Assembly: GCF_048403405.1 (NCBI RefSeq)
Contig: NZ_CP183129.1
Source: Escherichia coli
Lineage (GTDB): Bacteria > Pseudomonadota > Gammaproteobacteria > Enterobacterales > Enterobacteriaceae
DNA length: 64,000 nucleotides
Reading direction: 5' to 3' (one strand)
Below the pieces are notes generated by a model. That model saw only the letters and a list, made by a program, of their open reading frames with translations. It was not told the origin of the DNA and did not search any database. The position numbers were made by a program, and so were the translations under genes. Each line of letters starts with the position of its first letter. Position 1 is the stretch's first letter. Positions 2 through 52,137 of this stretch are shown one piece after another.

Positions 2-766
2 CTGACTTTCGCGACCGAAGAAGAAATTCGTGCCGTGGTTAAAGCCGGTCCGGGTTCACTGGGTCCGGTAAACATGCCGATTCCGGTGGTGATTGACCGT
101 ACCGTTGCAGCGATGAGTGATTTCGCTGCTGGTGCTAACATCGATGGTAAACACTACTTCGGTATCAACTGGGATCGCGATGTCGCTACCCCGGAAATTG
201 CTGATATCCGTAACGTGGTGGCGGGCGATCCAAGCCCGGATGGCCAGGGTACACTGCTGATCAAACGTGGTATCGAAGTTGGTCACATCTTCCAGCTGGG
301 TACCAAGTACTCCGAAGCACTGAAAGCCTCCGTACAGGGTGAAGATGGCCGTAATCAAATCCTGACGATGGGTTGCTACGGTATCGGAGTAACGCGTGTA
401 GTAGCTGCGGCGATTGAGCAGAACTACGACGAACGCGGCATCGTATGGCCTGACGCTATCGCGCCGTTCCAGGTGGCGATTCTGCCGATGAACATGCACA
501 AATCCTTCCGCGTACAGGAGCTTGCTGAGAAACTGTACAGCGAACTGCGCGCGCAGGGTATCGAAGTGCTGCTGGATGACCGCAAAGAGCGTCCGGGCGT
601 GATGTTTGCTGATATGGAACTGATCGGTATTCCGCACACTATTGTGCTGGGCGACCGTAACCTCGACAACGACGATATCGAATATAAATATCGTCGTAAC
701 GGCGAGAAACAGTTAATTAAGACTGGTGACATCGTCGATTATCTGGTGAAACAGATTAAAGGCTGA
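2..766 (+). CDS. proS: Prolyl-tRNA synthetase, C-terminal part (5' end lies outside the window)
   Basis: ORF 35..766 translation matches the class II ProRS C-terminal anticodon-binding region; reading frame is open back to the window edge; followed by a hairpin plus T-run terminator. Confidence 0.93.
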
Positions 767-49512: not shown

Positions 49513-52044
49513 TTAATTACTACCAAACATATCCTTGATCCAACCGGCTACACCGTCGCTGTCTTTCTGCTCTTGCTGAGCAGGTTGCTGTTGCGGCTGT
49601 TGCTGCGGCTGAGAAGACTGATCAAACGGATTGCCTGACGGCTGCTGCTGCATCTCACTCTGCTGGCACAGCGATTGCGGATCGCTGGTCCAGACCGGCA
49701 AGACACGCATACCACCGCTGCAAACAAAGTTGCCGTCGTAGTCCACGCCCATATCTGCAATATCTTCTGGCGGAACAAGATTTAGCGGCGTTGGCGTCTG
49801 GTTAGCCAGATAACGCTGATAAATCGACATTGCCCCGCTGGCTCCATACAGTTTGGTCGGCTGGTTGTTATCACGGCCGACCCAGGTGATGGTCACCGTG
49901 CTGCCGTCAATGCCCGCAAACCAGGTATCTACGTTATTGTTGGTAGTCCCTGTTTTCCCTGCCAGATGCAGGTTCGGGTATTTCGCCCCAAGCTGACGCC
50001 CCGTACCACGTTGTACCACCTGCTGCATGGTCCATAGTGTCAGATATGCCGCCTGCGCCGGAACCGCGCGTTCTGCCTGCGGGAAGCTCTGATACAGCAC
50101 CTTGCCATCTTCTGCGATGACTGAACGCAGCGCAGAAAGCGGTGCACGGTTACCACCGCTGGCGATGGTCTGGAATGCCTGCGCCACTTCGATTGGCGTT
50201 AAGTTCAACGCCCCCAGCAGCATTGCCGGAACCGGATGCAGCTGATCTTTCGGTACGCCCAGTTTAATCCAGGTCTCCGTAACCGCAGGCAGCCCCAGCG
50301 CCATCCCCAGATTCACCGTCGGCACGTTCATCGAACGGGTCAACGCATCCACCAGCATCACTCTGCCGCTTTCGCTATAACGACGGTCATCGTTCTGCGG
50401 TGACCAGACCTGGCCATTCGGCTGACGTAGCGCGATTGGCGCATCCGCAATCCACGTGTTCAGGCGATAGATTTTCGGCTGGCTTAAGGCCGTCAGATAA
50501 GTCGCTGGTTTTGCAAGAGAACCAATCGAACGACGCGCCTGCATCGCACGGTTGTAGCCCGCAAACTGCGGCTCAGAACCACCGACCATCGCACGAACTT
50601 CACCACTAAAGCGGTCGACGACCACAATCGCAGTTTCAAGATCGCTCAACTTACGCTGTTTCTTCAGTGCCGGAATGCCTTCCACGGCGGCTTTTTCTGC
50701 CGCGTCCTGGGCCACCGAGTCAAAGGTAGTGAAGATCTTCACGCCGGAGAGATCTTTTACCTTATCGCCCAGTTTTGCCTGCAGCTCCTGACGCACCAGT
50801 TGCATAAAGGCTGGCTGAGGAGAGATCACCCCACCGCGCGGCTGAACACCCAGCGGACGTGCACTCAACATGTCATAGAGTTCTTGATCAATAATCTGTT
50901 GCTGTTGCAGCAAACGTAGCACCAGGTTACGTCGCTCCAGCGCCAGTTTCGGGTTACGCCACGGGTTGTAGATGGACGCCCCTTTCACCATACCCACCAA
51001 CAGCGCCTGCTGATCGAGGCTCAATTCTTCTACCGGACGACCAAAGTAATACAAGCTCGCCAGCGGGAAGCCGCGGATTTCGTTGTCGCCGCTCTGACCG
51101 AGATACACCTCGTTCATATACAGCTCAAGAATACGGTCTTTGCTGTAACGCGCGTCCATGATCAGCGCCATGTAAGCTTCGTTCGCTTTACGCCAGTAAG
51201 AGCGCTCGCTGGAGAGGAACAGGTTTTTCACCAGCTGTTGCGTCAGCGTACTCGCACCCTGCACCGTGCGTCCGGCGGTCAGGTTTGCCAGCACCGCACG
51301 TCCGATGGAGTAGAGACTGATCCCATCATGCTCGTAGAAATGGCGGTCTTCTGTCGCCAGCAAAGTATCCACCAGCAAATCAGGGAAACCACTGCGCGGC
51401 ACAAACAAACGCTGCTCACCGTTTGGCGAGGAGATCATGGTGATCAGACGCGGATCAAGACGGAAGAAACCGAACTGACGGTTGTTCTCCATATTGACGA
51501 TCGTCGCCAGATGATCGCCATCAAAGGTCAGACGCGCACGCACCTGCCCTTCTTTACTGTCCGGGAAATCAAACGGACGGCGAATCATCTCAATGCTGTT
51601 GGCCTGCACGGTAAATTCGCCGGGACGGGTCATTTTCGACACCTGACGATACTGTGTTGCCTCCAGCAGCTTCACCATCTCGTTCTTGCTGATGGTCATG
51701 TCTGGCTCAAGGTTGACCATTCGGCCATAAACTGCCGCGGGCAATTGCCAGACCTTGCCATCAATACGGCTGCGAATTTTTTGATCGAGATAAACGCCGT
51801 AAATGGCGATCAGCACGGCAAAAACGATAGCCAGTTTTAGCAGCAGCCATAGCCAGCCGCGTTTGCCACGAGGCTTACGCCCTTTGCCTTTGCCCTTACC
51901 TTTGCGCGGCATCGGTTCTTCATCCTCATAGTCATCATAATCGTCGTAATCGTCATCTTCGTAACGACGACGGCTTACCTTTTGTTTGACCGGACGCGTC
52001 GGTTTCCCTTTGCGTCCAATTGGCTCGCGGTCATTCCCGGCCAT
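49513..52044 (-). CDS. mrcB: Penicillin-binding protein 1B (bifunctional transglycosylase/transpeptidase)
   Basis: About 843-aa product [22 protein letters not shown]... with a transmembrane anchor, glycosyltransferase domain and transpeptidase domain; a second in-frame Met follows the acidic tract. Confidence 0.95.
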
Positions 52045-52137
52045 GCTTTTTCTCCGCAATATTCAGGCGCAAAAGCCCGATTTTCTGTTCTTCTGTTGCA
52101 AGACAGAAGAAGATATCTCTCAAATTTGCTTTGGTCT

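Follow-up and report, generated by a model that had tools for sequence, protein, structure and literature searches.

Penicillin-binding protein 1b (PBP1b) has been known since the 1980s to occur as alpha and gamma isoforms (Kato 1984, Broome-Smith 1985 and Chalut 2001, cited in PMC13423804). In Escherichia coli K-12, the gamma form is translated from the second start codon, Met46, the M46L mutation yields the alpha form alone, and two PBP1b bands, of 94.2 and 88.9 kDa, are detected on blots (PMC13423804). The same study, published in 2026, described alpha-specific septal localisation and a link to FtsA in K-12, an interaction that according to its authors needs further biochemical validation. 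It assigned septum fortification to alpha and general synthesis to gamma, and described the N-terminal alpha peptide as confined to Enterobacteriaceae (PMC13423804). By Ribo-RET, a peak was found at the internal start of mrcB in both E. coli K-12 and BL21 (10.1101/520783). A long/short pair of MrcB proteins has profiling support in Salmonella as well, the long one carrying a 42-aa extension of basic-then-acidic composition (PMC11005335).

Internal starts in infB and clpB were recovered by Ribo-RET alongside that of mrcB (10.1101/520783). In each of these genes, one mRNA with an internal Shine-Dalgarno (SD) sequence and start codon gives two N-termini, namely the IF2 forms from infB and long and short ClpB from clpB. 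The proteins are unrelated to PBP1b, however, and mrcB differs from both in two ways: what its short form lacks is a disordered cytoplasmic tail and not a folded domain, and its internal SD is spelled by codons for acidic residues. Gram-positive class A PBPs that bind GpsB likewise use a cytoplasmic tail for division-site recruitment (an analogy drawn in PMC13423804), but with another partner and another sequence, no known dual start and no acidic tract. The two-start design of mrcB is already known, and nothing in the locus described here is new in kind. The comparative additions are incremental: the conserved location of the internal ribosome-binding site, the genera in which the gamma start is weakened or lost, and natural alleles of tail length.

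Identity and organization of the mrcB locus

The stretch of E. coli DNA that we analyzed (64,000 nucleotides; hereafter the window) carries mrcB on the minus strand, a strand that an earlier note on this DNA had left unstated. The mrcB product scored 1729.6 bits against the PBP1b equivalog NF007061 of NCBIfam (cutoff 1120) and 1247.6 bits against TIGR02071 (cutoff 717.75). Its Pfam domains are arranged in the order PBP1_TM (residues 1-78), UB2H (112-196), Transgly (208-378) and Transpeptidase (472-713). The catalytic motifs are all intact: the GT glutamate E232, S509-LAK (SxxK), S571-MN (SxN) and K697-TG (KTG). These residue numbers are one below those of K-12 because one Asp is missing here. 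The product is unambiguously PBP1b, a class A penicillin-binding protein.

The gene order in the window is hrpB-mrcB-fhuA, the flanking ORFs being hrpB-like and fhuA-like, and RefSeq annotation also places hrpB directly upstream of mrcB in other E. coli genomes. The N-terminal region of mrcB was present in 5,424 of 5,426 complete E. coli genomes and annotated as mrcB in every case; the start annotated by RefSeq in E. coli genomes is the same as here (52044). The locus shares with K-12 the gene itself, the flanking genes, the two start codons, their SD sequences and a 14-residue N-terminal peptide, whereas the hrpB-mrcB spacer measures 93 nt in the window and 195 nt in K-12, because a GC-rich palindromic insert is absent here. 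A sigma-70 promoter scan of 51600-52700 found none, and an Rfam search of 51000-53000 at E<=1 gave zero matches.

We fetched 80 species-level Enterobacteriaceae loci and left out one that was N-terminally truncated; the remaining 79 together with the window made up the 80 sequences analyzed below. The features of the window are collected in Table 1.

Table 1. Features of mrcB and its initiation regions in the window
Feature	Position	Strand	Basis or remark
mrcB (ponB) CDS, alpha form of PBP1b	49513..52044	minus	843 aa + stop; ORF listing, NCBIfam, Pfam, RefSeq start
Alpha SD, GGAG, 7 nt before ATG	52052..52055	minus	Read from sequence
Alpha start codon, ATG (Met1)	52042..52044	minus	Sequence; all 80 analyzed sequences read MAG(N/D)DREPI here
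Conserved alpha-only peptide, codons 1-14	52003..52044	minus	Reported to mediate FtsA-dependent septal recruitment
Basic segment, codons 11-27	51964..52014	minus	Part of residues 1-27, net charge +8
Acidic tract, codons 28-43, alpha-only	51916..51963	minus	12 of 16 residues acidic
One-codon length polymorphism	51949..51957	minus	GAT GAC GAT here, GAT GAC GAT GAT in K-12
Internal SD-like GAGGA, codons Glu40-Asp41, 10 nt before gamma ATG	51923..51927	minus	Sequence
Gamma start codon, ATG, Met45 (Met46 in K-12)	51910..51912	minus	Sequence and literature on K-12
KGKGKGKG tract at the gamma N-terminus	51880..51903	minus	Imperfect 6-nt tandem repeat, unit GGCAAA
Transmembrane anchor, codons 64-86	51787..51855	minus	Hydrophobic 23-residue run; overlaps Pfam PBP1_TM 1-78

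Two in-frame starts and the alpha-only extension

The earlier note had described two in-frame starts in mrcB, an acidic tract between the two methionines and a membrane anchor after the second. All of these elements were found as described: the translation of 52044..51781 is exactly as quoted there, and the marked range, 51900-52044, covers both ATGs, opening with the first and closing 10 nt beyond the second. The duplex of the alpha SD with the 3' end of 16S rRNA has an energy of -6.6 kcal/mol, which is also the mean over the 80 sequences. A TTG at 52059, to which the ORF lister had extended the frame, was rejected as a start; it sits within the alpha SD and is used by no RefSeq annotation.

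The alpha extension consists of 44 cytoplasmic residues, in which the conserved 14-residue peptide is followed by a basic stretch and by the acidic tract. The peptide is identical to that of K-12, including R6, P8, I9, G10 and R11, and nearly invariant across the 80 sequences. Along the cytoplasmic tail, net charges alternate from +8 (residues 1-27) through -12 (28-44, that is, the acidic tract including P44) to +10 (45-63). The acidic tract was found in 80 of 80 Enterobacteriaceae sequences as a run 11-19 residues long, variable in length and sequence (as in DEEYDDDYDDDDDDYEDEE of Citrobacter werkmanii) and marked by a recurring pattern of Tyr, and its composition is far from chance. Among the 150 best wider-family PBP1b representatives outside Enterobacteriaceae, none gave an alignment to the first ~40 residues of MrcB, in agreement with the published restriction of the N-terminal peptide (PMC13423804); an acidic stretch is clear in only 1 of the 150, and in nearly all the others the tail is purely basic. 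PMC13423804 does not bring up the acidic tract, and the words 'acidic', 'negatively charged' and 'linker' do not occur in it. At the protein level, candidate roles of the acidic block include that of a spacer, or of a block of charge, separating the membrane from the peptide that binds FtsA.

In MrcB of Salmonella Typhimurium the two-start layout is the same, the extension is again basic and then acidic, and ribosome profiling supports the pair, but the acidic tract is shorter (DDDYDDDYEDEE), the extension measures 42 aa and the basic repeat is (KG)3. The gamma methionine is Met43 in both Salmonella loci that we analyzed, which fits the published length of the extension (PMC11005335).

The earlier note had also attributed the alpha and gamma isoforms of PBP1b to these alternative starts, and the NF007061 match, the initiation region identical to that of K-12, the published isoforms and the Ribo-RET data all speak for this. 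With high confidence, we conclude that E. coli mrcB makes alpha- and gamma-PBP1b from one mRNA by means of two in-frame AUGs; from sequence identity with K-12, we infer that the source strain produces both isoforms. Ribosomes starting at Met1, with its SD GGAG, would make alpha-PBP1b with the 44-residue cytoplasmic extension, and those starting at Met45 would make gamma-PBP1b, which would begin directly with the membrane-proximal basic segment. Going by the published work on K-12, the extension present only in alpha would bring PBP1b to the site of division, with FtsA as the probable intermediary, and gamma would serve general wall synthesis.

The short form might instead be produced by proteolytic trimming of alpha, with no initiation at the internal codon. 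A third form of PBP1b, beta, has been attributed to cleavage by OmpT during sample preparation. As the origin of gamma, however, trimming is scarcely credible: Ribo-RET traps ribosomes in the act of initiating at the internal codon itself (10.1101/520783), M46L was used to obtain alpha alone (PMC13423804), and a conserved SD together with an unstructured region lies upstream of the gamma codon, as described in the following section.

The internal ribosome-binding site of the gamma start

The 24 nt preceding the gamma ATG are GAT GAC TAT GAG GAT GAA GAA CCG. From -39 nt of this ATG onward the sequence aligns with that of K-12 without a difference, and the alpha and gamma initiation regions both match K-12. 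We defined an SD-like core as GAGG, GGAG or AGGA at positions -18 to -4. Such a core was present in 73 of the 75 Enterobacteriaceae sequences having a gamma start and before only 114 of 2,138 other in-frame ATGs of the gene (5.3%; Fisher P about 1e-82), a contrast that is inflated by shared ancestry, since the compared species are related and their independence is overstated. The core also occurs in 5.1% of 15-nt windows of the gene. When Glu codons were resampled at gene-wide frequencies, the chance expectation was 24.2 +/- 3.8 of 75 sequences, with a maximum of 37 in 2,000 trials. Two of the five species without a gamma start have the core (P = 0.001 versus those with one).

The gamma region (-35 to +15) folds at -4.4 kcal/mol, compared with -12.0 +/- 3.4 kcal/mol for other 50-nt windows here, and over the 75 species the corresponding means are -3.8 and -13.1 kcal/mol, with a median percentile of 0.4%. 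Few stretches of the mRNA are as little structured as the gamma initiation region. This low structure is an expected by-product of the GAN/TAY codons of the acidic tract and need not reflect selection. A conserved hairpin upstream of the gamma start was considered and rejected: pairing of CGUCGUC (Arg) with GAUGACG (Asp) in E. coli had a z of -1.9 but is not conserved, and the consensus fold of this candidate over 28 sequences came to -0.37 kcal/mol with zero compensatory pairs.

The comparative evidence suggests that the acidic tract enables internal initiation at the RNA level. Its Glu-Asp codons would supply the SD-like GAGGA upstream of the gamma AUG, and its GAN/TAY codon composition would keep the gamma region almost free of secondary structure. 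The 10-nt gap between GAGGA and AUG exceeds the usual optimum.

Conservation and loss of the gamma start in Enterobacteriaceae

The earlier note had made its reading depend on a second in-frame start in orthologs, and one was present in 75 of the 80 sequences. The codon at the gamma position was ATG in 68 (including the window) and GTG in seven: two Silvania, two Leclercia, Kosakonia cowanii, Klebsiella pneumoniae and a Klebsiella MAG. No start codon was found at this position in the remaining five, which are two Kluyvera, Pseudescherichia vulneris, a related MAG and Kosakonia sp. S29. The gamma start is thus conserved widely but not universally. Because five species have no gamma start, gamma is not indispensable.

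All seven GTG species, in which the gamma position reads as Val, keep an SD-like core. The exclusive use of GTG among them was considered as proof of a retained start, but is suggestive only (naive P = 0.03, or 0.13 for four lineages); GTG accounts for 60% of Val codons in the GTG-bearing mrcB genes, and no other Val codon can be reached from ATG in one step.

It could be argued that the internal Met and GAGGA are conserved only for the residues that they encode, and that gamma is a by-product without selective value. The amino-acid sequence around the gamma site is itself well conserved, the gamma start is missing in the five species named above, and in published work a role in division is given to alpha alone (PMC13423804). 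Some other Glu columns are GAG-rich too: in 6 of 25 conserved Glu columns, GAG likewise reaches at least 80%. We accordingly discarded the conservation of the single GAG column as proof of selection and replaced it with two controls, the other in-frame ATGs described above and the use of GAG before codons that start with G. In this latter context, conserved Glu codons elsewhere in mrcB are mostly GAA and GAG is generally avoided, whereas at the gamma site GAG is kept. Moreover, the SD core moves rather than vanishes when the usual codon pair changes; in some species GAG-GAT is lost, and GAC-GAG-GAA, nearer the start, takes its place. The seven Val species, all with GTG and all with an SD-like core, point in the same direction (the all-GTG pattern not being significant), and profiling shows real initiation in two genera (10.1101/520783, PMC11005335). 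Taking both sides into account, we regard conservation for the protein residues only, with gamma as a by-product, as improbable.

We lean slightly towards a joint reading in which the acidic tract is dual-coded, specifying both a protein segment and the SD and unstructured zone of gamma, and in which gamma has been under selection across most Enterobacteriaceae and tuned or lost in particular lineages. According to this dual-coding reading, Glu and Asp codons would be held at synonymous sites so as to provide gamma with its ribosome-binding site and with an unstructured stretch for the ribosome to land on. The change from ATG to GTG may tune gamma down in Klebsiella pneumoniae, Leclercia, Silvania and Kosakonia cowanii, and Kluyvera, Pseudescherichia and a single lineage of Kosakonia would have lost it. 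This comparative point is not discussed in the cited mrcB literature. The genera with a weakened or lost gamma start offer natural test cases for the purpose of gamma.

Length alleles of the acidic tract and of the adjoining KG repeat

The window carries three Asp codons (DDD) where K-12 carries four (DDDD), so that the gamma start is Met45 in a protein of 843 aa here and Met46 in one of 844 aa in K-12, a difference that matters for residue numbering and construct design. The one-Asp indel sits at a GAT-GAT doublet; it lies 39 nt away from the gamma AUG, on its 5' side, and neither initiation region is altered by it. We sorted alleles in the 5,424 E. coli genomes by the identity band of their match to a 108-nt K-12 query spanning the acidic tract. 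Identity was at least 99% in 5,229 genomes (96.4%), which have the K-12 length; 184 genomes fell between 95 and 99%, the band expected of a one-codon gap (~3.4%), and 11 (0.2%) were divergent, at 90-95%. With the window sequence as query, an ungapped match was obtained in 178 genomes. The DDD allele is therefore a minority allele, found in ~3.4% of the 5,424 genomes.

The DDD allele was rejected as the mark of a single recent clone, given that 60-90 SNPs over 3.9 kb (1.5-2.3%) separate the flanks of four DDD genomes, and one DDDD genome is as near to these four as they are to each other. Around the indel, however, the four agree in a core haplotype that extends from about -205 to +254, one private SNP being the only exception, and this core is set in mosaic flanks. 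This pattern is compatible with one old deletion that would have spread by recombination, and the shared core haplotype makes recurrent slippage unnecessary.

The earlier note had called the repeated GAT/GAC codons slippage-prone and had proposed comparing the length of the acidic repeat among strains. Length alleles do exist, in the form of DDD and DDDD, and the one-codon indel at GAT-GAT and the 11-19 residue range agree with the proposal, but Tandem Repeats Finder did not call the acidic tract and 96.4% of the genomes share one length; slippage is at best weakly supported. In its strongest form, the idea would make the tract a hypermutable contingency locus at which frequent slippage switches or tunes alpha. 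Besides the indel at the GAT-GAT doublet and the range of tract lengths among genera, the expansion of the Asp run to DDDDDD in Citrobacter werkmanii and the occurrence of the short allele on flanks that differ by 1.5-2.3% could be taken to favor such a locus. A phase-variable locus would, however, be expected to have a near-perfect tandem repeat and many scattered length alleles, whereas the internal repeats of the acidic tract are 71-76% alike and a single length prevails in 5,229 of the 5,424 genomes. All tract variants that were read at the sequence level, a set that does not cover frameshift alleles exhaustively, are in frame, and the local haplotype common to the four short-allele genomes fits a single old deletion. 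A contingency locus is, on these grounds, very unlikely.

The KG tract at the N-terminus of gamma is a clearer tandem repeat than the acidic tract that it adjoins. Tandem Repeats Finder reported a period of 6 with 4.2 copies at 51881-51905, and a second repeat search agreed. This tract varies by one GGCAAA unit among E. coli. Among natural alleles of the species, the cytoplasmic tail thus varies in length by a single Asp codon or a single Lys-Gly unit. (KG)3 alleles were found on a DDDD background (MS8324 and NGF1) and on a divergent DDD background (Z1322HEC0005 and LR14), and rank positions in the match lists bound (KG)3 at roughly 140-280 E. coli genomes. (KG)3 is also the state of most other genera.

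Relatives of PBP1b outside E. coli

A member of the wider PBP1b family (representative P0121; 793 aa, 64% identical) begins with MSHYGHEPIGQKNKKIHSK…, a sequence that keeps an EPIG-K motif resembling that of the FtsA-binding peptide, the conserved alpha-only codons 1-14 of E. coli mrcB. This protein has neither the acidic tract nor the second Met. The presence of the motif without either element suggests, from the sequence, that an FtsA-binding-type peptide may be older than the acidic tract. An Enterobacteriaceae-type PBP1b (84% identical) was also found in an assembly labelled Chryseobacterium sp. 18061 (CACSKA010000010.1). Its tail is complete, with the N-terminal 14-residue peptide followed by the acidic tract and then PMPR. 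Mislabelling or contamination of this assembly is probable.

Repeats and length variation within mrcB

The stretch CGU-CGU-C in the Arg codons (residues 25-27) is reverse-complementary to GAU-GAC-G in the Asp codons of the acidic tract, and in E. coli the two fold into a hairpin across the GAT indel site (see table). Conservation of this Arg/Asp codon hairpin of E. coli mrcB was sought among genera and was not found. The KG tract at the gamma N-terminus has four units in Escherichia and three in most other genera; three units are also present in a minority of E. coli (MS8324, NGF1, Z1322HEC0005, and LR14). At the other end of the gene, the annotated mrcB of strain 7CC is 9 nt shorter than that of the window, and no extra indel was detected in its first 2.1 kb. 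Therefore, the Gln/Pro-rich tail is probably the site of a second length polymorphism.

Locations of features in and around mrcB
Feature	Location	Strand	Remarks
PBP1b C-terminal Gln/Pro-rich low-complexity tail	window, about 49516-49650	minus	3' end of mrcB
KGKGKGKG tract, gamma N-terminus	window, 51880-51903	minus	imperfect (GGCAAA)n tandem repeat
Arg/Asp codon hairpin	window, 51949-51975	minus	E. coli fold; spans GAT indel site
9-bp hairpin	window, about 52085-52110	minus	UUCUUCUGU / ACAGAAGAA
ORF with SfsA sequence	window, 55186-55890	plus	
GC-rich palindromic insert	L001 (mrcB locus of K-12 C600), about 175-280		contains …CCCTCTCCC…GGGAGAGGG…

The hrpB-mrcB spacer

In the alignment of E. 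coli loci, the K-12 (C600) spacer is 195 nt long, including the palindromic insert of about 100 nt, and the spacers of the window (52045-52137), strain 7/2, and MRSN346647 are 93 nt long and lack the insert. Z1322HEC0005 carries a differing version of the insert; in strain 11899A one half remains and the downstream hairpin is gone. The insert resembles a small extragenic repeat element; a search across the 64,000-nt window found its core at no other place. The 9-bp hairpin and a second short GC stem lie directly upstream of the mrcB alpha SD, and the spacer as a whole folds no better than shuffled sequences (z -0.45). The hairpin may act as an hrpB terminator or stabilise the mRNA, or it may have no role.

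mrcB across E. coli genomes and another gene of the window

Two genomes of the E. coli collection lack an mrcB match, and 3 of the 5,424 matches are located in plasmid-typed records. Within the window, one ORF has the sequence of SfsA. Because a Ribo-RET study (10.1101/520783) lists sfsA among genes whose internal translation start has been shown experimentally, this may be a second gene with alternative starts in the window.
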